The notes: a model not told the origin generated them from the letters alone. DNA of 64,000 bases from Gemmatimonadales bacterium (GCA_036397755.1 DASWII010000009.1:22233-86232), one strand, 5' to 3'; numbered from the stretch's first letter, positions 4,386 to 25,481 are shown. Numbers and translations are program-made.

Positions 4386-4882
4386 ACGACGAGGCGTTTC
4401 GGCTGACACCGGCCGACATTCGACAACAGGAGTTCCGCAAAGCCTTCACGGGGTATGATCACGCCGTCGTCGAAGAGTTCCGCCAACGCGTTGCCGACGA
4501 ACTCGAGCGCGTGCTCATGGAACGGGCGCAACTGGAGGAGCGGATCCAAGGCCTGCGGGAGCAACTCAAGTCGTTCCGCGAACGGGAAAAGGCGCTGAAC
4601 GATGCGGTCGTGGTTGCGCAGCAGCTCAGAGAGGAGACGGCCCAGGCCGCCCAGCGCGAGCGTGAGGTCGTGCTGCGCGAGGCCAAGTTGCAGGCCGAGG
4701 GCCTGCTCGGGGAGGCACGGAAGGCGGAGGCGGAGGTGCGGGTCGATATCGCAGCGGCGCAGCGTCAGTTCACGGGGTATGTGGCGGCGTTCCGGCAACT
4801 CCTGCTGCGGAGGCTGGCGGAGCTCGACGCCTTGGCCGAGCACGAGAGCGACGGCAGCGCTCCCGATGGGAGCCACGCGTGA
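4382..4882 (+). CDS. divIVA: DivIVA-domain cell-division/polarity protein
   Basis: N-terminal 'LTPADIRQQEFRKAFTGYDHAVVEEF' followed by a long coiled coil. ATGA overlap with yggS. Confidence 0.85.
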   Translation: MNDEAFRLTPADIRQQEFRKAFTGYDHAVVEEFRQRVADELERVLMERAQLEERIQGLREQLKSFREREKALNDAVVVAQQLREETAQAAQREREVVLREAKLQAEGLLGEARKAEAEVRVDIAAAQRQFTGYVAAFRQLLLRRLAELDALAEHESDGSAPDGSHA

Positions 4883-10920: not shown

Positions 10921-13578
10921 ATGACCAGATCGAGCATTGCGCAGCGTGACCGTGCGGCGCTCGAGGCCCTGGAACGGCGGCTCGATGGCCACGACGCCGG
11001 TGCCATGAACAACGTGGGAGTGGTCTACTTCCAGCATGGCCTGCTTGAAGATGCGGTGCGGTGCTTCTCCGGGGCGTGCCAGGCCGACCCGACCATGGCC
11101 GTGGCCCAGGCCAACCTCGAACGCGCCAGCCGCGAAAGCGGCATCTACGATCGTCGAGTGGCGGGACTCCGGCAGCGGCTCGCGGCGGCGCCCGACGATC
11201 TGGAGGCGCGCTGGGCGCTGGCGACCGTCTACCGCGCGCTGGGGCAGCACGGCGCCGCGCGCAGCGAATTCGCCGAGCTGGTCAGCGCTGCGCCCGACCA
11301 CGTCGAGGCCCTGCTGGCGCTCGCGCTGTGCGAGCGTCAACTGGGGGATATGGACGCCTCGGTGCGATGGCTGCGCCAGGCGGAGCAGACCGCCCCCGAG
11401 CGGGCCGACCTCGCTCTCTACCTCGGGCAGGCGCTGTACCTCCAGGGCAGGAGCGACGCAGCGGCCGACCTCTTGGGTGCGGCGGCCGTTCGCTATCCCG
11501 AGCACTCGGATCTCCAATACCACCTCGGCGTCGTGCTTGGGGATCTGGGCCGCCACCAGGAGGCGCGGGAAGCGACCCACCGTGCCATCGAACTCAACCC
11601 GGCGCTCGGTCGCGCTGATCAGGTCGTGTCGCTCAGCAGTTTTCCCTTGATCCCCGTGAGTGCGCATACCGCTGCCGCGGGGGACGAGTCGAACCTTCAA
11701 CACTACGGTCTGGCGCGCTCCTTCCGCCATCAGGGGCTGTTGGCGGAGGCCCTGCGCGAGTACCGCCTGGCGCTCGATCGCGGCGAGGATCGGCTTCGGG
11801 TGATGCGCGGGATGGCCGAGACGCTGCTGCTGCGACGGGAACCGGCGGCGGCGCTCGAGCTGTACGATCCGCTGATGCGGGAGCAGCCGACGGCACAGGT
11901 GGCGAACGAACGCGGCGTCGCCCTGCATCAGCTGGGACGGTTGGAAGAAGCGCTCGAGGCATTTCACGACGCGCTGACGCGTGCCGCCGACGACGCGCTC
12001 GCGCGGAACAACCTCGCGATCACACTGGCCCAACTCGGGCGACACGAGGAAGCCGCCGGGCAGTTGGCGGAAGCGGTGCGCTGTCGACCACAGCTGGTTG
12101 TGCCGCGGGTGAATCTGGGCTTGCTGCTCCACAGCATGGGACGGGAACGACACGCGCTGCAGGCGTTCCGCCAGGTCGTGGAGGTCGCGCCGCAAACCGC
12201 TGCAGCATGGAATGGCATTGGACTGGTGCTGGTCGGGGCCGACCGTGTCGCCGACGCCCGCAACGCGTTCGTTCGGGCCGTCGAGGCGGATGCGGGATCT
12301 GCGGAGGCGCATTACAACTTGAGCTTCGCCCTGTCGCACCTCGGAGACTTCGATGGCGCGCTCCGCGCGGTGACCCGCGCGCAGACGCTGGACCCGTACT
12401 TCGTCCCACAGAAGTTCCGCTTCATCATTGCGGCGCAGCTCGAGGAGCAAGGCGTGGGCTTGCCCGAGATCTCGGCGGACGTGCCGGCGGACGTCGGCGC
12501 ACAAGGCCTCGTGCTGGACACCCGACAGTTCGAGGAACTGTTCGGCGCCCTCGAGCGGGAGGCGACCGTCAGCGCCGCTCCGGCGGAGGATCTCCTGACG
12601 CTCGCGCGCGACTATCGCGCACGCGGCATGCACGACCTTGCGGTCGCCGAGGTCGGTCGAGCCGTCGCGCGCGGCGCGGACCGTGTGGAAGCCGCTGTCC
12701 TGGTGGGAGAGATCTTCGAGGAACGGGGACTGCATGGCGAGGCGCTGGAGCGGTTCGAGAGCGCACTTGCGATCGATCCGGCACGACGGGAGGCCCAGCT
12801 TGGCGAACTTCGGGCAATCCTCGCCCTCGGTCGGCCACGCGACGGGGTGGCGCGCGCTCGGGCGGTGGCGCTGGAGCGCCCGAGTGACGTCGAGGCGCTC
12901 GGCACACTCGCCAGGTTCGAGTACGCCACGGGAGATCCCATCGTGGCGCTGGCCGTGCTGCAGCGCGCGCGCGCGCGCGCGCCGCAGCGTGCCGACCTCC
13001 TGCGGCTCGAAGGCGACATCGCGCTGGCGCTCGCGAAGCCGCAAATGGCGCGGGAAGCGTTTGAGCAGGCGCTCGAGTTCGAGCCCGATGATATCGAGAC
13101 CCGTGTGGCGCTCGGGGGCGCGTATCAGGCGCTCGATGAGGACGAACGGGCGGCCGCCTCGTATGAACAGGTGCTGGCGACCGCGCCCGGAGCAGAGCCC
13201 GCGGCCATCGCCTTGGCCGAAGTGTATCAGCGGGCGGGAGACGGTCCGCGCGCGGTCAACGTGCTCGTCGATCTCCTGTTGATCGATCCCACCGCACTCG
13301 GGGCGCTCACCCGGCTCGCGTACGCCCTGTTCGAGGTTGGGAGGGTTGCTCCGGCGGCCCAGGCCCTGGAGCGCGTGCTGGCACGTGATCCCGACAATGT
13401 GGACGCGCTGTGGTTGCAGGCACGGCTTTGGGCGCGCGCGCGGCGGTTCGACGATGCGGTGCAGTGTTGGGAGCGGGTCGTGGCCTTGGTGCCTGGTACC
13501 GAGCAGGCACGCCGCGCTCGACAGCACATCCGTACCGCGGGCGACCTCCGGCAAATCCTCACCACTGAGGCGGCGTAG
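10921..13578 (+). CDS. large cytoplasmic multi-TPR scaffold protein (first gene of the MglA locus)
   Basis: 885 aa of repeated A/L/G-rich TPR-like helical pairs (e.g. 'AEAHYNLSFALSHLGDFDGALRAVTRAQTLDP'). No signal peptide. GGAG lies 9 nt upstream of the ATG. Confidence 0.8.
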   Translation: MTRSSIAQRDRAALEALERRLDGHDAGAMNNVGVVYFQHGLLEDAVRCFSGACQADPTMAVAQANLERASRESGIYDRRVAGLRQRLAAAPDDLEARWALATVYRALGQHGAARSEFAELVSAAPDHVEALLALALCERQLGDMDASVRWLRQAEQTAPERADLALYLGQALYLQGRSDAAADLLGAAAVRYPEHSDLQYHLGVVLGDLGRHQEAREATHRAIELNPALGRADQVVSLSSFPLIPVSAHTAAAGDESNLQHYGLARSFRHQGLLAEALREYRLALDRGEDRLRVMRGMAETLLLRREPAAALELYDPLMREQPTAQVANERGVALHQLGRLEEALEAFHDALTRAADDALARNNLAITLAQLGRHEEAAGQLAEAVRCRPQLVVPRVNLGLLLHSMGRERHALQAFRQVVEVAPQTAAAWNGIGLVLVGADRVADARNAFVRAVEADAGSAEAHYNLSFALSHLGDFDGALRAVTRAQTLDPYFVPQKFRFIIAAQLEEQGVGLPEISADVPADVGAQGLVLDTRQFEELFGALEREATVSAAPAEDLLTLARDYRARGMHDLAVAEVGRAVARGADRVEAAVLVGEIFEERGLHGEALERFESALAIDPARREAQLGELRAILALGRPRDGVARARAVALERPSDVEALGTLARFEYATGDPIVALAVLQRARARAPQRADLLRLEGDIALALAKPQMAREAFEQALEFEPDDIETRVALGGAYQALDEDERAAASYEQVLATAPGAEPAAIALAEVYQRAGDGPRAVNVLVDLLLIDPTALGALTRLAYALFEVGRVAPAAQALERVLARDPDNVDALWLQARLWARARRFDDAVQCWERVVALVPGTEQARRARQHIRTAGDLRQILTTEAA

Positions 13579-14721
13579 ATGGCGATCGAGGGCCCCCTAC
13601 GCGAACTCGGCATCCACGATGTCTTTCAGCTCCTCGATCTGAGCCGGAAGACCGGTGTGCTCACGGTGGCATCCGGGCTGCGGCGCAATCGTGGGCAGGT
13701 GTATTTCGAAGATGGGGCGATCATCTACGCCAGCATTCAGACGAACCCGCATCCGCTGGGTAGTCTGCTGGTGCGGACGGGCCGGTTGTCAGCCGCTGAT
13801 GTCAGGCGGGCCCGGGACATGCAGCGCGCGGGCGACGGCCGCCGGCTCGGTGAGATCCTCGTCGCGATCGGTGCGGTTTCGCCCGGCGAGCTGGAGCGTC
13901 AGGTCCGCTCCCAGGTTGAGGAAGTCGTGTTCGAGGTGATGAGTTGGGATGAAGGGCACTTCTCGTTCGTCGAGGGCCCACTCGAGGACGTCGGTGCCGA
14001 TGCGACGACGGTGCGCGTCCCCACGAGCTCGCTGCTCCTCGAGGGGGCGAGGCGCATTGATGAATGGTCGCGGATCGAGAAGACCATTCCGCACGTCGGG
14101 GTAATCCCGGTACTGGCGGTCCCGAACGGAGATGGAGGGTTGGTGGAGTTGCAGTCGACGGATTGGAAGGTCCTGGCGTTGACCGACGGGGTGCGGTCGA
14201 TTCGGACGATCGCGCAGCAACTTGGAACGTCCGAATTCGATGTGGCGAAGACGGTATTCGGGTTGCACGCGGCCGGCCTGGTCGGTCTGCAGTTGCGCCC
14301 GAGCGACGCGGAGGAGGGGGCGGGTGAGGGCAACGAGGTACAGGATCTCTTGGCGGACGCGGCAAAGGCGCTGCAAGAGGGGGACGAGGATCGGGCGTGG
14401 CGTCGGGTCGAGGCCGCCCGGCGGCACACGGCCGAGTCGCCGGAGGTCGATGTGTTTCTGGGCGAACTTGAGCTGCGTCGTGGACGGCCGGCGACTGCCG
14501 AGGAAGCCCTACGCCGCGCGCTGCGGTACGATCCCATGCTCACGACCGCGCACCGGCTGCTCGGCGAGGCGGTCGCGAGGCAGGGACGCATCGGGGAGGC
14601 GGTCGACTGGTGGCAGCGCTGGTTATCCGTGAACGAGGAGCTCGTCGAGCCCGAGGACAGCAAGGTCGTGCGGGAGGCTATTCGGGCGGCCCTCACGCTC
14701 CAGAGTTTCCTGTATGAGTAG
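13579..14721 (+). CDS. DUF4388/PATAN-like domain protein with C-terminal TPRs
   Basis: N-terminus 'GPLRELGIHDVFQLLDLSRKTGVLTV...GQVYFEDGAIIYA...LGSLLV..G..S...LGEILV' fits the DUF4388 pattern, with a TPR tail. The ATG directly abuts the upstream TAG. Paralogue of 18865-20481. Confidence 0.72.
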   Translation: MAIEGPLRELGIHDVFQLLDLSRKTGVLTVASGLRRNRGQVYFEDGAIIYASIQTNPHPLGSLLVRTGRLSAADVRRARDMQRAGDGRRLGEILVAIGAVSPGELERQVRSQVEEVVFEVMSWDEGHFSFVEGPLEDVGADATTVRVPTSSLLLEGARRIDEWSRIEKTIPHVGVIPVLAVPNGDGGLVELQSTDWKVLALTDGVRSIRTIAQQLGTSEFDVAKTVFGLHAAGLVGLQLRPSDAEEGAGEGNEVQDLLADAAKALQEGDEDRAWRRVEAARRHTAESPEVDVFLGELELRRGRPATAEEALRRALRYDPMLTTAHRLLGEAVARQGRIGEAVDWWQRWLSVNEELVEPEDSKVVREAIRAALTLQSFLYE

Positions 14722-14724
14722 CCG

Positions 14725-15486
14725 ATGACGGAACGACGGCCGCGAGCACCGTGGGATCCGCACAGCCTTGATGCAGCAGAACGGCTGCGACGTCAGGGCG
14801 ACCTCGAGGCCGCCGCGCGGGTGGCCATTGATCGGCTGGAGCACGCACCCGGCGACGCCGCGGCCCACGACTTGTATGCCCGCGTGCTCGCGGACATGGG
14901 CAATCTGCCCGGGGCTGAATCCGAGTGGCAGGAGGTCCTCGGTCAACTTCCGCGGCACGCCGGTGCGCACAAGGGGCTGGGTTTCATTCGCTTCCGCGAG
15001 GGCCGGTTGGACGACGCGCTGGACCACTTGGAGATCGCGCTGGCGAGCGCTCCCGGCGATCCGGCCGTGGTGCAAGCGATGCGGACGGTGCGCGCGGCCT
15101 TACAACGCGAGGCGTCGCCGCCCCGCGATCGAGTATTCGAGGGACTCGAAGGGGCCGGGCGGGGGTTGTTGTTGGTGGATGCGCGCGGAGGCGTCTTGGG
15201 TGGGGCGGTGCGGGATGCGGACGGGTTTGACCGATCGGAACTCGTCGGCGGGTACGCCGCGGATCTCGTGCATGAGGCCCGCCGCACGACGGCGATGTTG
15301 CACCTCGGGTCGTGGGAGTGGGTGGTGGTCGAGGGAAGCGAGGGGAGCACGTACCTCGCCGCGCCGACCGACGAGGCCGTGTTGTGTATTCTGCGCGATC
15401 GTGGCGTGCCGGCCGCACGCCTCACGTTGCTGGCTGAACCGGCACTCGCCGCGGCGCGCGAGTGGCTCCACGAGCAGACCCTGTGA
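14725..15486 (+). CDS. TPR-Roadblock/LC7 fusion protein
   Basis: The N-terminal ~125 aa are TPR-like ('HKGLGFIRFREGRLDDALDHLEIALASAP'). The C-terminal ~110 aa resemble Roadblock ('RGLLLVDARGGVLGGAV...WEWVVVEGSEGSTYLA'). Confidence 0.65.
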   Translation: MTERRPRAPWDPHSLDAAERLRRQGDLEAAARVAIDRLEHAPGDAAAHDLYARVLADMGNLPGAESEWQEVLGQLPRHAGAHKGLGFIRFREGRLDDALDHLEIALASAPGDPAVVQAMRTVRAALQREASPPRDRVFEGLEGAGRGLLLVDARGGVLGGAVRDADGFDRSELVGGYAADLVHEARRTTAMLHLGSWEWVVVEGSEGSTYLAAPTDEAVLCILRDRGVPAARLTLLAEPALAAAREWLHEQTL

Positions 15487-15833
15487 GCGCGCACGTCCGC
15501 CGAGCGCTCGAGGAGATCACGCGCATTCGTGGGGTTCGCGGCGCCGTGCTCGCCGATCGAACCGAGGGCATCGTCGTGGCGGAGTCGGCGATGCTGGGGG
15601 TACGGCGTGAAGCCATCGCTGCCCTGGGCGCGAGCTTGGTGCGCCGCTGCGGGGTACTCTTGGAAGGCGGCGGGCTGGGCGTACCGAGACACGTGCTGCT
15701 CCAGGGACGGGAGGGAACCCTCGTGGCGGTGCCCGTCACCGACGAGTTGCTCCTCCTGGCCGTTGGGGATGCGGCGGTGAACGTGGGCCTTGTCCGTGCC
15801 GAGCTGCAGCGGGTCGCGCGGGAACTCCGATGA
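15483..15833 (+). CDS. Roadblock/LC7-domain protein (MglC-like size)
   Basis: 'ITRIRGVRGAVLADRTEGIVVAES....AALGASL...LLQGREGTLVAVPVTDELLLLAVG' fits the Roadblock pattern. The GTG overlaps the upstream stop (GTGA). The ORF track offers ATG 15462 as an alternative start. Confidence 0.72.
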   Translation: MSAHVRRALEEITRIRGVRGAVLADRTEGIVVAESAMLGVRREAIAALGASLVRRCGVLLEGGGLGVPRHVLLQGREGTLVAVPVTDELLLLAVGDAAVNVGLVRAELQRVARELR

Positions 15834-16300
15834 GAAACACGCGCGCGGTGGAGGCGTGGACGATCGGTCCGCTCGAGCATTTCGTCGGGCAAGCCGGAGC
15901 ACGCTTGGTGCTGATCATGACGCCGGCCGGTCAGGTGATGGCGCAGTACGGCTTCGCGCGCGCCGTCGATGTCATGACGGCGGCGGCGCTTGGCGCCGGC
16001 ATTGTGGCGTCGAGCAGCGAGATCGCCTCTATGCTCGGGCAGCCGCCGTTCGCTGCGCTCGGTCACCGTGGCACCCATCACGGGATCGTGCTGTCGTCCT
16101 TCGATTCCCCGCGCGGTCGCTTGCTCGTGCTGGTAGTTTACGGGGTGGAGACGTCTCTCGGACTCGTGCAGCTGTTCCTCGGGACGCTCGTGGACGATCT
16201 GGCCGCGGCCTGTCCGGTTCCCGAGTCGCGCGGCCCGGTCCTGGCCGTGAACTTCGAGAACGAACTCAACCGCAGCCTCGACGCTCTGTTCGGACAGTAA
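15830..16300 (+). CDS. mglB: MglB-like Roadblock/LC7 protein (GTPase-activating partner of MglA)
   Basis: 156 aa. '[27 protein letters not shown]' and the C-terminal 'LDALFGQ' resemble Myxococcus MglB as I recall it ('VVLVVIFDNRTSLGLVRLRIK', 'IDNLFSE'). Sits directly upstream of mglA. ATGA overlap. Confidence 0.78.
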
Positions 16301-16301
16301 C

Positions 16302-16901
16302 GTGCCGCTCATCAACTTCACCACCCGAGAGATTACCTGCAAGATCGTCTACTACGGGCCTGGCCGGTCGGGAAAGACAACCAACCTGCAGTACATCTTC
16401 GACCGCGTGCCGGAAGGCCGCCGTGGGCGGATGGTGTCGCTGGCCACGCGCGCGGACCGCACGCTTTTCTTCGATTTTCTGCCGCTTGACCTCGGACAGA
16501 TCTCGGGATTCGCCACGCGGTTTCAGCTGTACACGGTTCCTGGGCAGGTGTACTACGACGCGACGCGCCGACTGGTGCTGCAGGGAGCGGACGGCGTCGT
16601 GTTCGTGGCGGACAGCCAGGCCCGCCAGCTCGATGAGAACATCGAAAGTCTGCAGAACCTCCAGGCCAATCTCCTCGGTCAAGGCGTCGATGTCCGCGGG
16701 CTCCCGATGGTCATCCAATACAACAAGCAGGACCTCCCGCCCGACCTCGTGCTCGCGCCCGCCGAGTTGGATCGTGCCCTCAACTTCCGCGGGGTGCCGA
16801 CGGTATCCGCCGACGCGCTGGTGGGACGCGGGGTGTTCGAGACGCTGAAGGCGGTGTCCGGTCTCGTACTCAAGCGGCTGAGCGAGGATTCCACGGCGTG
16901 A
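16302..16901 (+). CDS. mglA: MglA-family Ras-like small GTPase
   Basis: '[32 protein letters not shown]', '[10 protein letters not shown]', '[11 protein letters not shown]' and 'YNKQDLP' are near-identical in pattern to M. xanthus MglA (P-loop, intrinsic Arg, switch-2 Gln, NKxD). Confidence 0.93.
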
Positions 16902-18865
16902 CCGCCGAGATCAACCCGCGGTGTACGTTCGACACCTTCGTCGAAGGTTCGGAGAACCAGATGGCGTGTTCCGCGGCGCGCGCGGCGGCCGGCGCGCTCG
17001 GTGCGCGGTACAACCCGCTCTGCATCATCGGCGCCAGCGGACTCGGCAAGACGCACCTCCTCATGGCGGTCGGGCACGAGGTCAAGGCGGTCCAGCCAGA
17101 CGTCAGCATGATTTACTGTTCGGCGGAGGAGTTCGCGAAGGAGTTTCACGCGGCGGTCGCTGCCGGTGAGGGGCCGAGTTTTCGCGCTCGGTACGAGGCG
17201 CTGGATCTGTTGTTGCTGGACGACGCGCAGGCGCTCACGTTTCAACCCGAGATCCAAAGCGAACTGCTGCGGTTGCTCGATCGGCTGCTGCAAGATGGGC
17301 GGCAGATGATGCTCAGTTGCGATCTCTCCCCCTCCGAGTTCGAGGCCTTGGACGAGCAGTTGGCTCAGCGATTGGCTGGAGGCTTGGTGGTGGAGGTGAC
17401 GCTCCCGGACTACGAGACGCGGCTCGCCATTCTGCGCCGCCGGGCGGCGGATCGATCGACGCAGTTCGGAGAGGGGATTCTGGAAGAGGCCGCTCGGGGG
17501 GAGTACCGCAACGTTCGCGAGCTGCTCGCGGCGCTGCATCGCCTCGCCGCCCTGCAGGCGATGCAGGGCACGCCGCTCACGCTCTCGGAAGCCCGCCTTG
17601 GTGTGTCGAGCGAGGCGGTGCGGATGGGTGGGAGGGTCGCCCAGGCACCAGCCAGGGGTGTCGCGGTCGCGACGCCGGCCGACGCGAACGAGTTCTCGAC
17701 GTTTCTGGCGGACGTGAGTCACGCCGTGGAGGAGCAGGTCGATCACTGGCGTGAGGCCGTGGCGCGGGCCGTGATGGTGTGGGAACCCGAGGGGTATCGC
17801 ACCGCACGGCTCGAGCAGGCCCTTGAAGGGAACCTCCTCGGTCCGGTCGAACGTATTGTCGCGCGGTTCGAGGCCGACGTCCGGCGCCTGCGGCGATTGC
17901 AGGAGGCGGTCGGTGAGGTCGCCCCGGAGCGCGCCAGCGATCCGGTGTTTTTCGACCCGGACCGCACGGCCGAGGCCGAACTCCTTCTCAAGGACGTGAT
18001 GGCCGCCGTGCGTCCCCTCCCGGTGCCTTCCGACCGGTGGGGTGAGGGGAGCTTCATCGAGACGGACTGCAGTCGCGCGGCGGTGTCGGCCGTCGCGACG
18101 GTTGCCGGCGAGCCCGGCAGACGCTACAACCCGCTGGTCTTGGTGGGATCACCCGGGGTGGGGAAGTCGCACTTGCTGCATGTCGCGGCTCACCGGTTGA
18201 GTAACCAGGGCGTGACGGTTGCGTGTTTGTCGGCCCACCACTTTGTGGACGAACTCACGGAAGCCCTGATGCGCGAAACGGAGGACCGCTTTCGCGCCTG
18301 GCTCGGCCGGGCCGGGGCGCTCCTCCTGGACGATCTCCAGCTGGTTGGCCAGCGCGCCGCGGCGGCAGACGAACTGGTGTATCTCATCGACCGGTTCTTG
18401 GCAGGTGAACGGCAGCTCGTCTTTGCGTTGAGCGGTGAGCGTCACGCGATCGAGGGCCTCGATCCGCGCATCGTGTCCCGTCTCGAGGGCGGACTCACCG
18501 TGGCGATCGATCGCCCCGATCGCGAGCTGCGGCGCCAGCTCACGATCGCGAAGCTGGAGGAGCACTACGGTGCGGCCGAACTCGAGCTGGTCGATTACCT
18601 GGCCGCGCAGCCCGCGCAGTCGGCGCGGTCCGTGATCGGGCTCGTTCAGCGAATCCTGAATGCGGCCGAAGCCCGGGGCGAACCCCCCAGCGGCGGGTTG
18701 GCGCGCGACCTGCTCGAGGGCGTGCGGCCGGCGGCGTCCCGCCGATCGGTGCGCGTACGCACGAGCGGAGTGGCCGGGCCGGCCACGGCACCCACGAGTC
18801 GCGAGAAGACGGTGTGGGCCTGGCCCGATCTGCTCGATCGGATCGTCGATGAGGAGGCGGGCTAA
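16898..18865 (+). CDS. tandem DnaA-type (domain III) AAA+ ATPase lacking DnaA domains I and IV
   Basis: Module 1 has '[15 protein letters not shown]...[18 protein letters not shown]', Walker B 'LLLLDDAQ', '[23 protein letters not shown]' and 'NVRELLAAL'. Module 2 has '[18 protein letters not shown]', 'LLLDDLQ', '[19 protein letters not shown]' and '[13 protein letters not shown]'. No C-terminal HTH is visible. The GTG overlaps the mglA stop. Confidence 0.75.
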
Positions 18866-20481
18866 TGGCGGTCCGTGGCAATCTCGCGGAAGTCTCGCTT
18901 CCCGATGTCCTGCAGCTGTTGGCCCTTGGGCGTAAAACGGGCAGCCTGACCGTTACGGACCGTGCCAACGTCGGGTACATCTACTTGGATGATGGACGCA
19001 TCTCGTTCGCTTCCATTGTGAATCGCCGAGATCGGCTTGGCGACCTGTTGGTCAAACGCGGACGGATTACCCTGGAGCAGCTCGAGCAGGCCGTGGAGCG
19101 CCAAGGACGCGAGCGCGACCGCCGTCTCGGAGACATCCTCGTGGAGGACGGGGTGATCGACCGGGAAGAGTTGCATCGCTACGTGCGGGTGCAGATCGAG
19201 GAGGCTGTGTATTTCCTGTTTACCTGGGCGCGTGGGACGTTCCGCTTCGACAGCGATGCGCGCCCTGAGGAGCAGGACTTTCTCGTATCGATCAATCCCG
19301 AGAGCCTGCTGCTCGAGGGCGCGCGGCGGGTGGATGAATGGAGCATCATCGCCAAGCGGATTCCGTCATTCGACATCATCTTCGAGGTCGATACGGAGCG
19401 CATTGCCCACGCCGGCGTCCAGCTCTCGGCGGTCCAGGATCGCGTGTTGCCGTATCTCGACGGGACGCACGATGTGACGGCGATTGCCGACCAGACCGGC
19501 TTATCGGAGTTCGAAACGGGCAAGGCGCTGTTTGGACTGCTTTCGGCCGGGTTCCTCAAGCGCGTCGGTCGCTCACGGCCCGGCCCATCGGGAAGTCACA
19601 TCGCCCCGGTGGAGGAGCATCGCAACCTCGGGGTCGCGTTCTACCGTACCGACATGCTGGAGGAGTCGTTGCGGGAATTCCGGCAACTGGTCGAGTTACG
19701 GCCCACGGATGCGGAGGCGCTCTACTACCTGGGTCTCATCGCGTTACGACAAGCACGCTGGGACGAGGCGGTGGCGCGCCTCCGCGCAGCGATGGACTGC
19801 GGTGGTGGGCGGCCGGTAGTGCGGTATCACTACGCGCTCGCGTTGGAATCTGGTGGGTATCTCACGGAGGCGGATGCTGCCTACCGTGAGGCGCTCGCGC
19901 ATGCGCCGCATGATTGGCGCTTTCTGCAGGGATGGGGGATCGTGACCCTCTTGCGCGGTGATCATGACAGCGCGGCACAACGACTCGATCGCGCGCGGGA
20001 GGTGGCGGCGGACGAGCCTCTCGGAGCCCTATGGTACTGGGCGCGGGCGCTCTGCGCGACCGCCGCCGGTGACCTCGAGGCCGCCGAACGCTATCTCCGG
20101 CTCGGTCTCGCGGCCGTACCGGAGAACCCGGCGCTGCGGAACAACTTGGCCGTGGTGCTCGAGAGCCAAAACCGCCTCGCCGAAGCCGAGTCGTTGCTGG
20201 TGCACGCGATCGCGGAGGACCCGTGGCTGCCCCATCTGTCCAAGAACCTCGGGGATGTGCACTACCGGAACGCGAAGTACGACGAAGCGTGGGACGCCTA
20301 CCAGCGGGTCATTCGCCTGCGCCCGGAGTTCGGCGACGATGTGTATTTCCGATTGGGGAACATCGCCTATCGACGCATGGATCGGGAGTCGGCTGTCGCG
20401 CTGTGGCGTCAGGCGCTCGCGCTCAATCCGGGACACGAGTTGGCGCGCACGAATCTCGATACCTTGGAAGCACTGACGTAG
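18865..20481 (+). CDS. DUF4388/PATAN-like domain protein with a long C-terminal TPR array
   Basis: 'GNLAEVSLPDVLQLLALGRKTGSLTV...GYIYLDDGRISFA...LGDLLV..G.I....LGDILV' can be aligned by eye to 13579-14721, and TPRs fill the rest. The ATG overlaps the upstream TAA (TAATG). Confidence 0.72.
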   Translation: MAVRGNLAEVSLPDVLQLLALGRKTGSLTVTDRANVGYIYLDDGRISFASIVNRRDRLGDLLVKRGRITLEQLEQAVERQGRERDRRLGDILVEDGVIDREELHRYVRVQIEEAVYFLFTWARGTFRFDSDARPEEQDFLVSINPESLLLEGARRVDEWSIIAKRIPSFDIIFEVDTERIAHAGVQLSAVQDRVLPYLDGTHDVTAIADQTGLSEFETGKALFGLLSAGFLKRVGRSRPGPSGSHIAPVEEHRNLGVAFYRTDMLEESLREFRQLVELRPTDAEALYYLGLIALRQARWDEAVARLRAAMDCGGGRPVVRYHYALALESGGYLTEADAAYREALAHAPHDWRFLQGWGIVTLLRGDHDSAAQRLDRAREVAADEPLGALWYWARALCATAAGDLEAAERYLRLGLAAVPENPALRNNLAVVLESQNRLAEAESLLVHAIAEDPWLPHLSKNLGDVHYRNAKYDEAWDAYQRVIRLRPEFGDDVYFRLGNIAYRRMDRESAVALWRQALALNPGHELARTNLDTLEALT

Positions 20482-20509
20482 CGGGCCTGCGCGGAGGGAG
20501 GGCGGTCGT

Positions 20510-21370
20510 ATGACGGATGCGTTGATCCAACAGCTGCGGGCGCAGTATGAGTCGATTTCCGAGCGTCTCGACGGTGTGGAGTCCGTCGCGGATCGCGAGG
20601 CGATCAAGCGCGCCATCATCGAACTCTTCAAGACCGTCGACCTGTCCATCAACGATCTCGCGGCCCTGAAGGAGGAGATTCGTGGACTGGTGGATCGGTA
20701 CAAGCAGATCGCCGAGCACCAAAGCGGCGAGCCAACGCCCCAGTTTGCCGCGGAGGCCCCCGTCATCCACGCGGATCACATCGGGGCGTCCACCTTCATG
20801 GAAAAGGGTTGGAGCCTCATCTCGCTCGGTGACTATCCGGGTGCGATCCAGGCGTTGACCAAGGCGCTGCAACTCTCGCCGGGAGAGGTGCGGGCGGAGT
20901 CGCTCCTCGGTTGGGCGCAGATGCTCCACGCCGACTACGACGCGGCACTCGAGACCCTCAGCGGCGTGTTGCAGAGGGATCCGACCAATTCCCTGGCCCG
21001 TATCAACGTGGGCTACGTGTGCCTCAAGAAGCAGATGTTCGGAGAAGCGATCGAGCACCTTTCCAAGGCCATCCGCCTCGACAACGACAAGAAAGCGACC
21101 CTGTACGCGCACTTCTACATCGGGCTGGTGTACTTCCAACGGGAGATGTACGAGGAGGCACAGACGTTCTTCGAGAAGACGCTGCGGTTGGGGCCCAATC
21201 TGCTCGAGGCCTATTACGAGCTGGGGCGGGCGCTGTGGTTCGGGGGCGACAAGGACGGGGCCCGTTCCGCGTGGGAGCAGGGGTTCGCGGCGAACAAGTT
21301 CAACCCGTGGGGCAAGCGGTGTGGGGAAGTGCTGGACGCCGTCTCGCAGGGACAGGAGCCGCCACGCTGA
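20510..21370 (+). CDS. coiled-coil plus TPR protein
   Basis: N-terminal heptad-like region, then TPRs ('AHFYIGLVYFQREMYEEAQTFFEKTLRLGPN'). GGAGGGA lies upstream of the ATG. Confidence 0.75.
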   Translation: MTDALIQQLRAQYESISERLDGVESVADREAIKRAIIELFKTVDLSINDLAALKEEIRGLVDRYKQIAEHQSGEPTPQFAAEAPVIHADHIGASTFMEKGWSLISLGDYPGAIQALTKALQLSPGEVRAESLLGWAQMLHADYDAALETLSGVLQRDPTNSLARINVGYVCLKKQMFGEAIEHLSKAIRLDNDKKATLYAHFYIGLVYFQREMYEEAQTFFEKTLRLGPNLLEAYYELGRALWFGGDKDGARSAWEQGFAANKFNPWGKRCGEVLDAVSQGQEPPR

Positions 21371-22239
21371 TCGCGCTACTTCCCCTGGTCGTTTGGGTCC
21401 AGATGGCGGTGGTGCAGGTTGGGCGGGTCACCGCGGTGTACTGGCCGGGTGACGAGGTGCTCGCCACGGGCCTAGCCGAGTTTGCCGATGCCCAGAGCCG
21501 ATGGCCCGGATTACCCGCCCCACCTGCGCGTCCGGTGCGCCTCATCGTGACGCCGGATGACAGCGCCTTTGATTCCATCGTGGGTGGTCGGGTGCCGGAA
21601 TGGGGGGCGGCCGTGGCCATGCCGGCATCCAACAGCATCGTGATCCGGGCGTCGGACGGCGTGCCCGCTGTGCGGCAGCACCTGCGCCACGAACTTGCGC
21701 ACCTGGCATTGCGCGAGGCGGTGCCGCGGGGGGTGCCCCGCTGGCTCGACGAGGGATACGCGGTGGTCGCGGCGAACGAGTGGGACGGCACGGATGTCCT
21801 GCGGGTCAACTGGGCCATGGTGCGGGGGGTGCGGCCGTCGCTTCGTGACGTCGATCGCGCCCTGCAGGAGCCGTCGGCCACCAACGCCGCCGGAGCCTAC
21901 GCGTTCGCCGCGACCGCCGCAAGCATGTTGAAGCGGCTGGGGCGGGAGCGGGGGTTCGAGCCGATCTTCTCCGGACTACGCGCGGCTGGGGATCTTGACG
22001 CGGCCCTGCGAGCGACACACCAGATGACGATTGGCCAATTCGAGGAGCAATGGCAGCGGGACCTTCGGCGGAGGTACGGGTGGATGACATTACTCGGTTC
22101 GGCAACCGTGTTCTGGGCGTTCGCCGCCCTGATTCTGTCGGCTTTGTGGTCGCGAAGTCGCATGCGATATGACGCCCGGCGGGCGGCGTTGGACGAGGGT
22201 TGGACGGTGGCTGCAAGTGACGCCGGGACCGATGCTTGA
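21319..22239 (+). CDS. HEXXH (peptidase MA-like) protein with N- and C-terminal hydrophobic anchors
   Basis: 'HELAHLALRE' followed by 'WLDEGYAVV'. C-terminal TM 'WMTLLGSATVFWAFAALILSALW'. GTG 21319 gives an RR-plus-hydrophobic N-terminus; ATG 21403 is the alternative start. The part of the track ORF upstream of 21319 is judged a frame artefact. Confidence 0.55.
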   Translation: MWGSAGRRLAGTGAATLIALLPLVVWVQMAVVQVGRVTAVYWPGDEVLATGLAEFADAQSRWPGLPAPPARPVRLIVTPDDSAFDSIVGGRVPEWGAAVAMPASNSIVIRASDGVPAVRQHLRHELAHLALREAVPRGVPRWLDEGYAVVAANEWDGTDVLRVNWAMVRGVRPSLRDVDRALQEPSATNAAGAYAFAATAASMLKRLGRERGFEPIFSGLRAAGDLDAALRATHQMTIGQFEEQWQRDLRRRYGWMTLLGSATVFWAFAALILSALWSRSRMRYDARRAALDEGWTVAASDAGTDA

Positions 22240-22266: not shown

Positions 22267-22458
22267 GTGTCTATGTCTGACAGGGCAGGTTCGCCCGCGC
22301 GACTGCAGTTCCGTCCGCGCAACGTAACGTTGCTCGCGGCGGCGCTGATATCGGTTGGTGTCGGCTACGCGCTGTTGGCGCGCGGCGATACCACGGTGGC
22401 ACCGATCTTGTTGGTGCTGGGCTACTGTGTGTTGTTTCCACTGGGGCTCGGCCTGTAG
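22267..22458 (+). CDS. small two-helix membrane protein (hypothetical)
   Basis: 63 aa with two hydrophobic helices ('VTLLAAALISVGVGYALLA', 'VAPILLVLGYCVLFPLGLGL'). It fills the gap before tRNA-Val. No homolog recognised. Confidence 0.4.
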   Translation: MSMSDRAGSPARLQFRPRNVTLLAAALISVGVGYALLARGDTTVAPILLVLGYCVLFPLGLGL

Positions 22459-22467
22459 CGGTCGCGG

Positions 22468-22541
22468 GGGCGAATAGCTCAGGGGTCCAGAGCGCCTGCC
22501 TTACAAGCAGGATGTCGGGGGTTCGAATCCCTCTTCGCCCA
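22468..22541 (+). tRNA. tRNA-Val (anticodon TAC)
   Basis: Cloverleaf folded by hand: acceptor GGGCGAA/TTCGCCC, D stem GCTC/GAGC, anticodon stem CCTGC/GCAGG with loop CTTACAA, T arm GGGGG-TTCGAAT-CCCTC. CCA is not encoded. Confidence 0.9.
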
Positions 22542-22563
22542 CTGTCGGAGGTGCGCGGGCTTG

Positions 22564-24381
22564 ATGCTCGGTTACGAAATGCAGAGTGACTCACGGAGGA
22601 TTGGTGTGATACTCACACGGTTGGTGCGCGTGCTGAGCCTGGTCACGGTGGCGGTCGTGGGGCTTGAGGCGACGGAAGAGCTCCACGCCCAGCGATCGAT
22701 GGAGCGTGTTCTCATGCTCGCCCCGGCGCCGTCCGCTGGTGTATCGCCGGACTTCGCCATCGCGTTCGCCGACGAGGCGCGGAAGCGGATGAACAGCAAG
22801 TTCCGCAACCGGCTCACGGTGATTCCCACCGACGACATCTGTGAATTGCTCAGGCAATCGGCGTTCGACTGTGAAGTGATCCTGAACGATCAGGACGCGG
22901 AACGGCTCGCGCGGGCCATGCGTGCGGACCTCTACATCGTGGGCACCGTGTGGTACGACGACGCCGCCCCCCAGGGGAGGTTTCACCTGATCGACATCGG
23001 ACGGTCGGGTGTCTCGGGGTGGATGGAGGTGAAGGGTGCGCCGGGCGACGCGCCTCGGCGGTACGCGGATATCCTGGCCGACTCGCTCGAGAATCAGGTA
23101 CGCGCCGGCGAGCTGGCGCGCGAATGCGTGGAGAAACGCGACGGTAACGACTACGATGCGGCGCTCCAGCGCGCGAGGCGGGTCTTTGAGGTCTACCCCA
23201 ACCATCCGGCAGCAGCGCAATGCGCCGCCTACGCCGTCGAGGCGATGGGACAGCCGGCCGACAGTCAGATCCCGTATTACGAGCGCATGGTGCGCGGCGA
23301 CTCCCTGCAGGAGCGCGCATGGCAGCAGTTGGGGCGGTTGCACCAGGAAAAAGGTGACTCCCTCAAGGCGCTCGAGGCGTTTCGCCGGCAGCTCTATCTC
23401 ACCCCCGGCGATCGCCAGCGGTGGCGAGGAATCGTCGCCGGGTACATGATGGTGGGAGAACACGCACAGGCGCGTGATCTGGCGGACGAGTGGTTGGCGG
23501 ACAACAGCGATGACGTCGAGTTCATCCAGTTGAAGACGCGCGCCTGCTTCGAGGGAGCACTGTGGGGGTGCGCTGTCCAAGGGCTGGCGGCGCAGTACGG
23601 GCGAGATAGCGCGCTGATCGGCGACAGCCTGTTCTACCAGCAGATCATTGCGGCGGCGCAGGCCGACGAGGACACGGACGCGCTGCTGCGGTGGACGTCC
23701 GAGGCGATTCGGTGGGTGCCGCACAATACGACGTTCTGGCGGGCGCATGCGGACGCGCTGAGCGAGGCCGGGATGGCCGACTCGGCGGTGGCGGTTTACG
23801 AGCACGTCGTGTTTCAGGACCCGACGGACATCGCCACGGCCCTGCTACTCTCCCGCCGCCTCATCGAGGGGTTGAGCATCGACACGGTGAGCCCCGTGGA
23901 CACGACGGCGTTGCTGGAAGCGGGAGAGTATCTCGATCTGGTGGTGTCGCAGAGCCAGGACACGTCCGTGCTGATGAACGCGGCGGTGCTGTTCTATCAG
24001 CCCGCGCAGCAGCTTGTCCAGACGCGACAGGCGCTGCCGATAGCCGTCAGCTTTCTCGAGAAGTCCCTCGAGGCCGACGTGCTGAATCGACTGGGTGACC
24101 GTGCGAGTTTCTTCTTGGCGTGGGGACTGTTGTACAGTGTCTACGACTTCGATCCCCAGATCGTGCAGTATGCGGAGCGAATCCAGAATCTGAGCGCGGC
24201 GGAGCGCGCCGACGCTTGTATCTTGGTGGGTCAGGAAGAACAGATGGTTCAACGAGGCCTGGAAGCCATTGCCGCGGGCGCGTCGGTGTCGGCGGCCGCG
24301 GCACAGGACTTTGCCTCGCGGTTCGCCAACTTCCGACAGCGAATCCCGACGCTGCGCGAGGCGTTTGAATGTAGGCGGTAG
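22564..24381 (+). CDS. secreted/periplasmic TPR-like repeat protein (hypothetical)
   Basis: N-terminal signal-like 'LVRVLSLVTVAVVGLEA', then helical repeats ('AWQQLGRLHQEKGDSLKALEAFRRQLYLTP'). GGAGG lies 12 nt upstream of ATG 22564. The track starts at TTG 22561. Confidence 0.6.
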   Translation: MLGYEMQSDSRRIGVILTRLVRVLSLVTVAVVGLEATEELHAQRSMERVLMLAPAPSAGVSPDFAIAFADEARKRMNSKFRNRLTVIPTDDICELLRQSAFDCEVILNDQDAERLARAMRADLYIVGTVWYDDAAPQGRFHLIDIGRSGVSGWMEVKGAPGDAPRRYADILADSLENQVRAGELARECVEKRDGNDYDAALQRARRVFEVYPNHPAAAQCAAYAVEAMGQPADSQIPYYERMVRGDSLQERAWQQLGRLHQEKGDSLKALEAFRRQLYLTPGDRQRWRGIVAGYMMVGEHAQARDLADEWLADNSDDVEFIQLKTRACFEGALWGCAVQGLAAQYGRDSALIGDSLFYQQIIAAAQADEDTDALLRWTSEAIRWVPHNTTFWRAHADALSEAGMADSAVAVYEHVVFQDPTDIATALLLSRRLIEGLSIDTVSPVDTTALLEAGEYLDLVVSQSQDTSVLMNAAVLFYQPAQQLVQTRQALPIAVSFLEKSLEADVLNRLGDRASFFLAWGLLYSVYDFDPQIVQYAERIQNLSAAERADACILVGQEEQMVQRGLEAIAAGASVSAAAAQDFASRFANFRQRIPTLREAFECRR

Positions 24382-24431
24382 TCACTTGTACGGCGGACGG
24401 TATCGGCCTACATTTGCCGGCTGTCTCATCG

Positions 24432-24505
24432 GGGGCTGTAGCTCAGTTGGTTAGAGTGCCGGTCTGTCACACCGGAGGCCGCGGGTTCAAGTCCCGTCAG
24501 CCCCG
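24432..24505 (+). tRNA. tRNA-Asp (anticodon GTC)
   Basis: Acceptor GGGGCTG/CAGCCCC, D stem GCTC/GAGT, anticodon stem CCGGT/ACCGG with loop CTGTCAC, T arm GCGGG-TTCAAGT-CCCGT. CCA is not encoded. Confidence 0.9.
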
Positions 24506-24524
24506 CTTGCCGTCCAAACCATGA

Positions 24525-25481
24525 GTGGATGACCGGTCCCGGAGGCGATCCTCCGGGACCGCTTTGCATGGGGGCCCCGTGGCTGGTGATCATGAGCCGG
24601 TGCTGGCAGAAGAAGTTCTCCGCTTCGCCCAGGATGCCAGCCGCGCCGCCGACCTCACGGTGGGTGGGGGAGGTCATGCGAGCCGCCTCGCGGCGTGCGG
24701 CATCGATGTGCTGGCCTTCGATCGGGATCCGCGGGCGGTCGCCCGCGTGCGCGAACGGTTCCCGGAGGTCGAGGCGCACGTTGGCGCCTTTGCTGAGACC
24801 GACGTCATCGCGGCCGTCCAGCGATTCCGGCCGGACTTCGTCCTGTTCGACTTGGGTGTCTCCTCGCACCAACTCGACGATCACACCCGCGGGTTCTCGT
24901 TCCGCCGCGATGTCCCCCTGGACATGCGGATGGACGCGCGCGGTCGGACGGCTGCGGATTACCTCAATACCGTCGACGTCACGGAGCTCGCCCAGGCCTT
25001 CAGGGACTACGGAGACGAACGGCGGGCTGCCGCCTTGGCCCGCGCGGTAGCGCGTCGCCGGGTCAGGGAACCGCTCCGGGTGAGTGACGACCTGGTGAAC
25101 GCGATTCGCGAAGTGCTCGGTGCGCGTGCTGGACCGCGGGTGTTCGCCCGCGTGTTTCAGGCCGTGCGAATCGCCCTGAACGAGGAGCTCGAGCAGCTTG
25201 CGGCGGCCCTGCCGGCCTACCGAGACGTACTCGCCCCCGGTGGGGTGCTTGCGGTGATAGGCTATCATTCAGGCGAGGATCGAATCGTCAAACACGCGTT
25301 TCGCGAGTGGACGCGCGCGTGCGTGTGTCCGAGGGAGCAGCCGGCCTGCACCTGCCGTGGGCGTTCCCTGGGGACGCTGCTGACGCGCCGACCCATCCGA
25401 CCGGAGGTCGAAGAAATGGAGCGAAACCCGCGGGCGCGGAGCGCTCGGTTGCGAGCCTTCAGGGTCGATGCGAGCGCCTAG
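24525..25481 (+). CDS. rsmH: 16S rRNA (cytosine1402-N4)-methyltransferase
   Basis: 'HEPVLAEEVL', 'DLTVGGGGHA', 'FDLGVSSHQLD' and 'SGEDRIVK'. The start is uncertain (GTG 24525 or GTG 24579). Confidence 0.92.
   Translation: MDDRSRRRSSGTALHGGPVAGDHEPVLAEEVLRFAQDASRAADLTVGGGGHASRLAACGIDVLAFDRDPRAVARVRERFPEVEAHVGAFAETDVIAAVQRFRPDFVLFDLGVSSHQLDDHTRGFSFRRDVPLDMRMDARGRTAADYLNTVDVTELAQAFRDYGDERRAAALARAVARRRVREPLRVSDDLVNAIREVLGARAGPRVFARVFQAVRIALNEELEQLAAALPAYRDVLAPGGVLAVIGYHSGEDRIVKHAFREWTRACVCPREQPACTCRGRSLGTLLTRRPIRPEVEEMERNPRARSARLRAFRVDASA

Follow-up and report, generated by a model that had tools for sequence, protein, structure and literature searches.

A che-less form of a Gemmatimonadota-wide mgl operon and its possible role as an expanded MglA polarity switch

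The window analysed here, a stretch of 64,000 nucleotides (nt) from a Gemmatimonadales bacterium (GCA_036397755.1 DASWII010000009.1:22233-86232), carries at positions 10921-22239 a block of ten co-oriented genes on the + strand, in which the genes for a Ras-like GTPase of the MglA family and an MglB-like partner are joined to genes for further Roadblock, TPR, PATAN, DnaA-type AAA+ and HEXXH metallopeptidase-like proteins. The genes are referred to as g1–g10, following their order. A check of the open reading frames (ORFs) of the window recovered all ten at the coordinates assigned in an earlier reading of the bare DNA (the sequence-only reading), and gene calling done independently on the source contig, a Gemmatimonadota metagenome contig of 191,917 bp (ENA ERZ27256991 k141_507710) recognized by an exact protein match, gave the same ten genes, with products of 885, 380, 253, 116, 156, 199, 655, 538, 286 and 278 amino acids (aa). 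The junctions had also been read exactly: the stop codon of g1 is directly followed by the start codon of g2 (TAG/ATG at 13578/13579), g2 and g3 are separated by 3 nt (14721/14725), g5 and g6 by 1 nt (16300/16302) and g8 and g9 by 28 nt carrying GGAGGGA ahead of position 20510, and the other junctions are overlaps, namely GTGA at 15483 (g3/g4), ATGA at 15830 (g4/g5), GTGA at 16898 (g6/g7) and TAATG at 18865 (g7/g8). The tight translational coupling proposed from these junctions holds in the window and is conserved across relatives, and profile searches support all of the domain assignments (Roadblock, DUF4388, DnaA-type, TPR and Peptidase_MA_2). Two points require amendment: the HEXXH gene that ends the block, g10, is present, but its start, placed near 21370, is ambiguous (the gene caller uses ATG 21403); and the ten genes do end at 22239, but the conserved block runs on with a 61-aa protein, a tRNA-Val and an exported TPR protein. 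The GC content is uniform over the whole window (~0.65-0.70), the block having the same composition as its surroundings. Neither a terminator-like site on the + strand nor a sigma-70-like promoter was found inside the g1–g10 cluster, and the Rfam search returned two tRNAs only, with no riboswitch or further RNA element inside the block.

Relatives of the locus were collected with the family-specific linker of the ATPase encoded by g7, a segment chosen to avoid true dnaA genes, taking one genome per GTDB species. A relative of the linker is encoded in 252 species-level genomes; the locus analyses reported below concern the best 80 of the 252, for which the six-frame ORFs of 20-kb loci were searched with the window proteins.

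The GTPase, g6 (16302-16901, 199 aa), is an MglA by its similarity to the proteins of both Myxococcus xanthus and Thermus thermophilus, scoring 247 bits against the former (5ymx/6h17 alignment, residues 1-194) and 231 bits against the latter. Of the elements that make up the MglA signature (P-loop GxxxxGK[ST], TxxGQ, the intrinsic Arg finger that is R53 in M. xanthus, the catalytic Gln that is Q82 and N/TKxD), g6 carries the P-loop, the intrinsic Arg, LYTVPGQ (TxxGQ, with Thr in place of Asp and the catalytic Gln) and NKQD. All signature residues of MglA group 1 are present and are ~90-100% conserved among 70 orthologues, the median identity of g6 across relatives being 78%. Its upstream neighbour, g5 (15830-16300, 156 aa), is an MglB-like Roadblock protein, with a phmmer E-value of 1.8e-8 against M. 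xanthus MglB (6hjm/6h5b/6izw) over 109 residues and of 4e-4 against Thermus MglB; the median identity of g5 within the phylum is 59%, and whereas it ends 1 nt short of mglA in the window, the two genes are 2-6 nt apart in relatives (63/66).

Two further Roadblock proteins precede this pair. The stand-alone Roadblock/LC7 protein g4 (15483-15833, 116 aa) matches Robl_LC7 with 26 bits (cut-off 23), and its family profile reaches an E-value of 8.3e-13 against PDB 7f8m and also matches dynein LC7, LAMTOR2 and MglB. In g3 (14725-15486, 253 aa), an N-terminal TPR region (TPR_19/16) is followed by a C-terminal Roadblock/LC7-like domain; as a single sequence this half scores 18 bits against Robl_LC7, which is under the cut-off, and as a profile it matches 7f8m (E=1.1e-5), Thermus MglB (1j3w, E=5.7e-5) and g4 (hhalign 89%). 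No chain named MglC was among the PDB matches of the g3 and g4 profiles, no direct comparison with an MglC sequence having been made.

Directly downstream of mglA, g7 (16898-18865, 655 aa) encodes a tandem AAA+ ATPase of the DnaA domain III type, in which Bac_DnaA is matched twice (242 bits). It consists of a first module, D1 (~1-235), a helical linker (~262-372), a second module, D2 (~375-608), and a conserved C-terminal tail, the last ~45 residues of which are predicted to be disordered yet hold the conserved motif SREKxVWxWPD. D1 aligns with residues 111-328 of Bacillus subtilis DnaA, and in most orthologues examined each module is 36-44% identical to domain III of that protein and 34-39% identical to the other module; D2 of the window has diverged further, with 28% identity to DnaA (36-41% in relatives) and 29% to D1. 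The AlphaFold2 (AF2) model, with a predicted local distance difference test score (pLDDT) of 82, superposes on DnaA domain III (8bv3) with a TM score of 0.94 and a root-mean-square deviation (rmsd) of 1.6 Å. Judged from the 72 aligned orthologues, the ATP sites are mostly intact: the Walker A Lys is kept in 70/70 for D1 and 72/72 for D2, the two Walker B Asp residues in 70 and 69 for D1 and in 72 and 71 for D2, and the sensor II Arg in 69 and 66 for D1 and D2, respectively. As for the box VII arginines, D1 retains the first in 66 orthologues and the Arg finger in 56 (otherwise Gly, Leu or Lys) and D2 retains them in 65 and 67, and the sensor-I Asp is kept in D1 and absent from D2. No match to DnaA_N or Bac_DnaA_C, that is, to DnaA domains I and IV, was obtained with g7, and its match to the DnaA model TIGR00362 covers only positions 102-332 of 437. 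The N-terminus, which begins like DnaA domain III, is devoid of a clamp motif of the Hda type (QL[SP]LPL-type), and g7 scores 142 against the Hda model, under its cut-off of 194.8, with two modules rather than the single one of Hda. Full-length homologues of g7 are numerous, the named ones deriving from metagenome-assembled genomes of Gemmatimonadales and Gemmatimonadota, and their annotation by JGI as "chromosomal replication initiator protein DnaA" is a misannotation.

The linker has no relative in the PDB or Pfam. It is specific to the family, being found at E≤1e-3 in 382 proteins in a profile search of 1.84 billion representatives, most of which are ~650-aa g7 orthologues or fragments thereof. 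It corresponds (window positions 17680-18015) to one unit of a helical repeat module, W..EGY...RLE ... FE.D...L.EL ... DPD, that occurs in 6-13 tandem copies in ~16 other large proteins of 851-3090 aa (e.g., P0243, P0244, P0250 and P0308; one such locus is L087); one of them, P0244 (1248 aa), has a lone Bac_DnaA AAA+ domain at its end and another repeat protein ends in a zinc ribbon. A fusion of the linker to a PATAN domain (P0253) was considered as evidence for an interaction between g7 and g8 and was discarded: it lies on a long-read contig (L086; ENA ERZ25039583 contig_46080) that is ridden with frameshifts and has split CheC, CheR and CheB genes, and because g7 and g8 overlap by 1 nt, such a fusion is an expected assembly artefact. 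A separate observation concerns D2 after its Walker B motif (window 18296-18340), where GQRAAAADE replaces the GKER(T/S)QEE stretch kept by most orthologues; a relative with 69% identity (P0002) shares the replacement. The equivalent segment of Escherichia coli DnaA holds Arg245, which binds single-stranded DNA (ssDNA).

The operon is found across the phylum. The 80 loci belong essentially all to Gemmatimonadota, mostly to Gemmatimonadales, with one from Longimicrobiaceae and one on a contig labelled Myxococcales; the latter was not taken as spread beyond the phylum, for it clusters with a near-identical Gemmatimonadales locus and is probably mis-binned. The order g1-g2-g3-g4-g5-g6-g7-g8...g9-g10-(61 aa)-tRNA-Val-d1, where d1 is the exported TPR protein, is seen, with all genes in the same orientation, in practically all loci of sufficient length, and more divergent members of the family recovered in the exhaustive profile search keep it too. 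Since both gene order and overlaps recur in ~70 species-level genomes, the arrangement is no chance event, and the gene set is conserved as a neighbourhood, so that the refuting condition named in the sequence-only reading, a lack of such conservation, does not apply. In particular, the connection that it had drawn between mglA and the DnaA-type ATPase is fixed, the 4-nt overlap of g6 and g7 being shared by 60 of 69 relatives; the same 4-nt overlap joins g3 to g4 in 60/62 and g4 to g5 in 49/63 relatives, and a 1-nt overlap joins g7 to g8 in 58/65. Median identities to the window proteins are 43-46% for g1, g3, g4, g7 and g10. One locus (L085, CP070716.1), in which the cluster breaks off after g1 and is followed by a 47-aa PATAN fragment and then unrelated genes, was treated as a rearrangement or misassembly and was not used.

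Most relatives possess genes that the window does not, with ~3.5 kb between rluD and g1 and ~3.2 kb between g8 and g9. Pfam identified CheW, CheY, CheA (Hpt-P2-dimerisation-HATPase-CheW) and CheC in the upstream insert, and CheR, CheD, CheB (REC plus methylesterase) and two CheW proteins in the downstream one, so that the full order reads rluD-cheW-cheY-cheA-cheC-[g1–g8]-cheR-cheD-cheB-cheW-cheW-[g9–g10]. Che genes are present in 65 of the 80 loci and absent from 9, and the remaining 6 are not long enough for a decision (65/74 informative loci). As read from the junctions, the che genes of these relatives are translationally coupled with the mgl genes: cheC is 3 nt from g1, g8 overlaps cheR by 4 nt in 48 of 51 loci and cheW overlaps g9 by 8, 4 or 1 nt. 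The complete genome CP070666.1 has the order divIVA-pnp-ileS-dksA-lspA-rluD-cheW-cheY-cheA-cheC-g1 onward, its left flank being that of the window. Because a complete che set is coupled into the cluster in 65 of the 74 relatives, the family context points to the control of taxis or polarity.

On a neighbour-joining tree of g7, the loci without che genes are spread over at least four positions among che-bearing lineages. Partial sets also occur: cheY alone lies between rluD and g1 in one locus (L004), cheY with cheC in another (L015), and a metagenomic locus (L088) has cheC upstream and nothing between g8 and g9, the three intermediates of che loss amounting to a deletion series in nature. The scatter of the che-less loci on the tree and these remnants argue for repeated loss, and the simplest history is that of an ancestral che-mgl operon from which the che genes were lost on several occasions, the window representing a che-less derivative.

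The surroundings of the block had led to a different inference. Upstream lie, in order, genes for a TMEM260-like protein, a yggS-like protein and DivIVA (4382-4882), followed by pnp, ileS, a gene for a dksA-type zinc finger, lspA and rluD; downstream, a tRNA-Asp gene (24432-24506) is followed from 24525 by rsmH/mraW, ftsI, murE, murF, mraY and murD. The sequence-only reading was right that the block sits between the divIVA-ileS-lspA-rluD genes and the dcw cluster, and it took this position, together with the lack of motility genes nearby, as a hint of a role in cell polarity, division-site control or a budding-type cell cycle rather than motility. An inference of division or budding instead of motility is not supported by the comparison: the same flanks are found with or without che genes, which 65 of the 74 relatives possess, and, being conserved synteny regardless of the che genes, the position by itself carries no functional signal. 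The underlying idea, in which the system serves the cell cycle, budding or the choice of the division site and MglA reaches replication or division by way of the DnaA-type ATPase, nevertheless deserves consideration on other grounds as well. Besides DivIVA 6 kb upstream and the rsmH-ftsI-mur genes directly downstream, it can draw on the ~40% identity of the g7 modules to DnaA domain III and the retention of the D2 stretch GKER(T/S)QEE in most orthologues, on the survival of the cluster after loss of the che genes, and on the localization of PatA, the founding PATAN protein, to division sites, as reported in work cited in bioRxiv 10.1101/2021.06.11.447907. We regard it as unlikely, given that the flanks are the same in che-bearing and che-less loci, that the cluster is co-translated with a chemotaxis pathway in 65/74 relatives, that g7 is devoid of DnaA domains I and IV and of an Hda-type clamp-binding N-terminus, and that the operon itself includes no division or replication gene. 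On the − strand, the gene calls of the source contig include a 280-aa ORF (24426-25268) that overlaps both the tRNA-Asp gene and rsmH/mraW (24525-25481, + strand, 260 bits) and is almost certainly spurious.

The two PATAN proteins, g2 (13579-14721, 380 aa) and g8 (18865-20481, 538 aa), match DUF4388 with 113 and 130 bits, respectively, and are paralogues (E=3e-46), with median identities of 54-58% between relatives and the window. In neither was a Response_reg match obtained that would correspond to the receiver (REC) domain of the PatA-type layout; instead, the PATAN domain is followed by TPRs. The match to positions 1-122 of the PF14332 profile is spread over ~160 residues, so that the domain carries an insertion of ~40 residues. 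Against the NCBIfam model c-di-GMP_motif (NF053729, related to MshE; cut-off 38), which describes a cyclic di-GMP (c-di-GMP) motif, the insertion scores 51.7 bits in g8 and 34.8 in g2. In g8 it consists of two tandem 24-residue motifs of the MshEN type, at residues 57-80 (RLGDLLVKRGRITLEQLEQAVERQ) and 87-110 (RLGDILVEDGVIDREELHRYVRVQ), separated by a 6-residue spacer, the first with one deviation from the MshEN consensus and the second exact; this is the arrangement by which MshEN was defined (PMC5013675). The motif residues of g8 are conserved in relatives. The insertion of g2 has one good and one degenerate motif, the first Arg of motif 1 being replaced by Pro. Modelled with AF2, residues 1-180 of g8 (pLDDT 78, predicted TM score (pTM) 0.71) find their best Foldseek matches in the PDB in c-di-GMP-bound MshE (5HTL) and in the GSPII-B domain of Thermus PilF (8PDK), with 54-56 aligned columns, an rmsd of 1.1-1.3 Å and 39-43% identity. 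These motifs and the model suggest that the PATAN domains of g2 and g8 probably bind c-di-GMP. The likeness of the PATAN insertion to the N-termini of type II secretion and type IV pilus ATPases has been noted before (bioRxiv 10.1101/2021.06.11.447907); the assignment is a consistent reading of known features rather than a discovery.

The block opens and nearly closes with TPR proteins. The 885-aa g1 (10921-13578), a cytoplasmic protein matched throughout by Pfam TPR families, is present in 60 loci, always as the first gene of the block, and has a median identity of 44%. The 286-aa g9 (20510-21370), also cytoplasmic, combines a conserved helical N-terminal domain, TPRs and a conserved C-terminus (...KFNPWGKRC...GQEPPR*), with a median identity of 67%; an identity of the 90-aa N-terminal domain, RomX-like or other, was sought and given up, as it has no relative in the PDB. 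No signal peptide was predicted in g1, g2, g3, g8 or g9.

The end of the block may face the envelope. The product of g10 (21367-22239, called start ATG 21403) is a putative MA-clan HEXXH metallopeptidase-like protein, assigned by its match to Peptidase_MA_2 (PF13485; 39.5 bits, cut-off 32.4) and by an invariant HELAH and a conserved W(L/F)DEGYA in 51 orthologues; a transmembrane helix at residues 227-249 is followed by a conserved Arg-rich tail (...ARRAALDEGW). Conserved in-frame hydrophobic codons extend upstream of ATG 21403 to the stop codon of g9 (window 21368-21403). The spacer from that stop to the conserved P.VV.VGRV of g10 is 29 to 47 nt long and always 2 mod 3, its indels being multiples of 3 only, and encodes a hydrophobic stretch with AxA-like sites at its end; g10 is in the −1 frame relative to g9 in 50 of 52 loci, and no ATG, GTG or TTG lies upstream of the conserved N-terminus in 15 of 49 orthologues. 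The fixed frame, the spacers differing by multiples of 3 and the missing canonical starts all spoke for programmed −1 frameshifting at the g9/g10 junction, which we do not claim, since there is no slippery heptamer and the GTG codons within VV.VGRV could serve as starts. Non-canonical initiation, recoding and a downstream GTG are all possible. The codons for the conserved GQEPPR* of g9 include a GGAG resembling a Shine–Dalgarno sequence.

Next on the + strand comes the gene for the 61-aa protein (22273-22458; called on the source contig), which has two hydrophobic segments and a weak match to Pfam DUF3098 and a homologue of which lies between g10 and d1 in 49 of 49 loci. It is followed by tRNA-Val(TAC) (22468-22542, +; ARAGORN and Rfam), found at the same position in 45 of 49 relatives and probably marking the end of the transcription unit, and by d1 (22561-24381, +), an exported protein of ~605 aa with TPR matches and an N-terminal signal peptide, its hydrophobic N-terminus with an AxA-like site being found in orthologues as well. 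Although d1 follows g10 in 51 loci, its membership in the system is uncertain because the tRNA gene separates it from the block.

These genes invite an explanation centred on the envelope, whereby the GTPase, TPR and PATAN proteins would position or activate an envelope machine that includes g10, the 61-aa protein and d1, for example one that secretes or processes an adhesin or a polysaccharide at the pole. The invariant HELAH of g10, together with its C-terminal transmembrane helix and hydrophobic N-terminal stretch with AxA-like sites, suggests a periplasmic domain, the 61-aa protein is present in all 49 relatives and d1 has a signal peptide; furthermore, c-di-GMP receptors often control the output of exopolysaccharides and adhesins. 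Nonetheless, the block contains no secretion ATPase, glycosyltransferase or outer-membrane component, and a tRNA gene stands between d1 and the rest. We rate this explanation as slightly less probable than a role in division, itself unlikely, and it overlaps with the polarity switch discussed below rather than excluding it.

TPR and metallopeptidase-like proteins are also common in defence systems, and g7 resembles nSTAND, NACHT and Avs models weakly, in a generic way through its P-loop, from which one might suppose an anti-phage or stress island of STAND/AAA+, TPR and protease genes beside mglBA. PADLOC, however, returned only weak generic matches (best mad8, 35.8 bits; Avs2, 17.5 bits) and nothing for 7 of the 10 proteins, and the block, translationally coupled to mglA and with the GC content of its surroundings, occupies one fixed chromosomal position among housekeeping genes across the phylum. 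On the PADLOC result and the synteny, we reject this reading as highly improbable.

With a confidence somewhat better than even, we favour the explanation that the operon, which occurs throughout Gemmatimonadota and of which the window has a form without che genes, encodes an expanded MglA polarity switch, resembling Frz–MglAB and integrating Che and c-di-GMP signals; what it most likely steers is a polar behaviour or motility, and not the division of the cell. By homology with Myxococcus and Thermus, MglA (g6) would cycle between its GDP- and GTP-bound states with the MglB-like g5 as its presumed GTPase-activating protein (GAP), and g4 and the TPR-fused g3 may work in the manner of MglC, as adaptor or platform subunits. 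The TPR proteins g1 and g9 are candidate scaffolds for effectors, and g1 might be an effector itself, by analogy with SgmX of Myxococcus and Bd2492 of Bdellovibrio. The PATAN proteins g2 and g8 would bring in c-di-GMP through the MshEN-type motifs of their insertions and, if cyanobacterial PATAN regulators are a guide, touch a polar machine at its motor or platform. We read g7 not as a replication initiator but as an ATP-dependent oligomerizing scaffold or switch that might be an effector of MglA-GTP or a regulator of MglA localization, with its disordered tail as a plausible docking peptide for a TPR protein, and the membrane-anchored g10 and the 61-aa protein could form the envelope end of the system. 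In the ancestral, Frz-MglAB-like form, chemosensory input in the shape of CheY~P would flip or gate MglA polarity; the lineage of the window would have deleted both che blocks and retained the rest, leaving a switch whose only inputs are presumably c-di-GMP and the nucleotide state.

Several observations weigh against such a switch. The description of g5 as a canonical MglB proved overstated: its homology to MglB stands (E=1.8e-8), but it scores below the curated cut-offs of both Pfam Robl_LC7 (21.1 vs 23) and NCBIfam MglB (26 vs 200) and is therefore divergent, and its GAP-interface residues rest on an uncertain alignment register, hand mapping placing an Ala and then an acidic residue at the positions of A64 and G68 of M. 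xanthus. No homologue of RomR or RomX was identified. Genes for pilus, gliding or flagellar components were seen neither in the window nor in the 20-kb loci, and none for a methyl-accepting chemotaxis protein was seen in the operon or in those loci; the candidate outputs of the switch are type IV pili, a flagellum or another polar structure. The CheC, CheD and P2-bearing CheA of the relatives look nearer to flagellar-type pathways than to those of the Frz or type IV pilus kind. Persistence of the cluster after che loss implies that its function does not depend solely on the Che pathway. Finally, the pTM of 0.46 of the g7 model makes its inter-domain geometry unreliable.

A bolder version of the polarity switch places g7 at its centre as the organiser, a DnaA-style ATP-driven oligomer whose assembly MglA-GTP would control, or which would itself control MglA-GTP, and which would take the place of RomR/RomX as a polar landmark or exchange factor; in a more radical form, it could co-assemble with the true DnaA or bind ssDNA or the nucleoid. 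This we offer as a speculation with a low chance of being correct.

Among characterized systems, the closest parallels are with the polarity and Frz module of M. xanthus, which has in common with the present locus the MglA signature residues, the order mglB-mglA, additional Roadblock paralogues (MglC in that organism), TPR (SgmX) and PATAN proteins near MglA, and a Che-type pathway tied to the GTPase module, here in most relatives and not in the window. Frz acts on MglAB via response regulators (PMC3441718), and PATAN and TPR proteins have been detected in the SgmX proximity proteome (PMC11580455). However, frz, mglBA, mglC and romR/romX are separate loci in M. xanthus, whereas here there is one translationally coupled operon; the Che set of the relatives includes CheC, CheD and a stand-alone CheY and no CheA-REC hybrid; and M. 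xanthus has no counterpart of the tandem DnaA-type ATPase or of the membrane HEXXH protein, just as RomR/RomX is not found here. Thermus and Bdellovibrio share MglA, an MglB Roadblock partner and, in Bdellovibrio, a TPR partner of MglA, Bd2492 (PMC3983030), but their genes are arranged in pairs or dispersed, and no DnaA-like ATPase, PATAN pair or extra Roadblock proteins have been described alongside. Cyanobacterial regulators of the PatA type in the Tax and Pix systems (PixG, PixE and TaxP) have the PATAN domain with its two-repeat helical insertion, che-type operons (here in the relatives) and a proposed link to a polar motor, PATAN regulators having been found to bind PilB1 and PilC (bioRxiv 10.1101/2021.06.11.447907); the architecture is PATAN-REC there and PATAN-TPR here, with CheY as a separate protein. 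The tandem RLGxxΦΦxxGΦΦxxxxLxxxΦxxQ motifs of 24 residues with a short spacer are shared with MshEN and the PilF GSPII-B domain, where they form the N-terminus of a secretion ATPase instead of an insertion inside PATAN. With DnaA domain III, Hda and DnaC, g7 shares the AAA+ fold of the initiator clade, Walker A and B, box VII and sensor II, and it differs from them in its two modules and novel helical linker, in having neither domain I or IV nor the clamp motif, in the missing sensor-I Asp of D2 and the variable Arg finger of D1, and in being encoded in a GTPase operon. Actinobacterial conservons (CvnA-D) and the eukaryotic Ragulator-Rag complex likewise use a small GTPase with Roadblock partners as a signalling platform, but the GTPase group (MglA group 2 and Rag, respectively) and the partners (a histidine kinase and LAMTOR) are different.

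Thus, MglAB, its association with PATAN proteins, TPR partners, Roadblock paralogues and the control of MglA by Che pathways are already known. PATAN genes, for instance, are occasional neighbours of mglA genes of groups 1 and 5 (Wuichet & Sogaard-Andersen 2014, PMC4316618), and the supplementary table of that study lists two group-1 MglA loci in Gemmatimonas aurantiaca (GAU_1115 and GAU_1409), as 'MglB>MglA>' and 'PATAN>MglA>-PATAN>', so that Gemmatimonadota may have a second, smaller MglA-PATAN module. What is new is the union of these parts in a single operon, the obligate tandem DnaA-type ATPase, the tail of HEXXH and small membrane proteins and the series of che-plus and che-minus forms; our literature searches found no description of the full ensemble or of a link between MglA and a DnaA-type ATPase, in agreement with the sequence-only reading, and g7 is an undescribed obligate neighbour of MglA.

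MglA and MglB are the paradigm of Ras-like polarity control in bacteria, and nearly all mechanistic knowledge of it was gained in Myxococcus, in which the parts are dispersed over the genome. The Gemmatimonadota operon looks like the whole parts list in one place and thereby offers candidate partners of MglA, and the lineages that repeatedly lost the Che input while retaining the switch constitute a natural experiment. In g7, moreover, it presents a new family of non-replicative DnaA-type ATPases that metagenome annotations label as DnaA, the linker of which, if the assignment is true, would define a new helical repeat module present also in 6-13 copies in other large proteins. Should g7 indeed communicate with MglA, small GTPases would have a partner of a new kind; and should it meet DnaA, ssDNA or the nucleoid, a Ras-like polarity GTPase, and with it, in the ancestral form, a chemosensory pathway and c-di-GMP, would be wired directly to AAA+ machinery of the initiator type.

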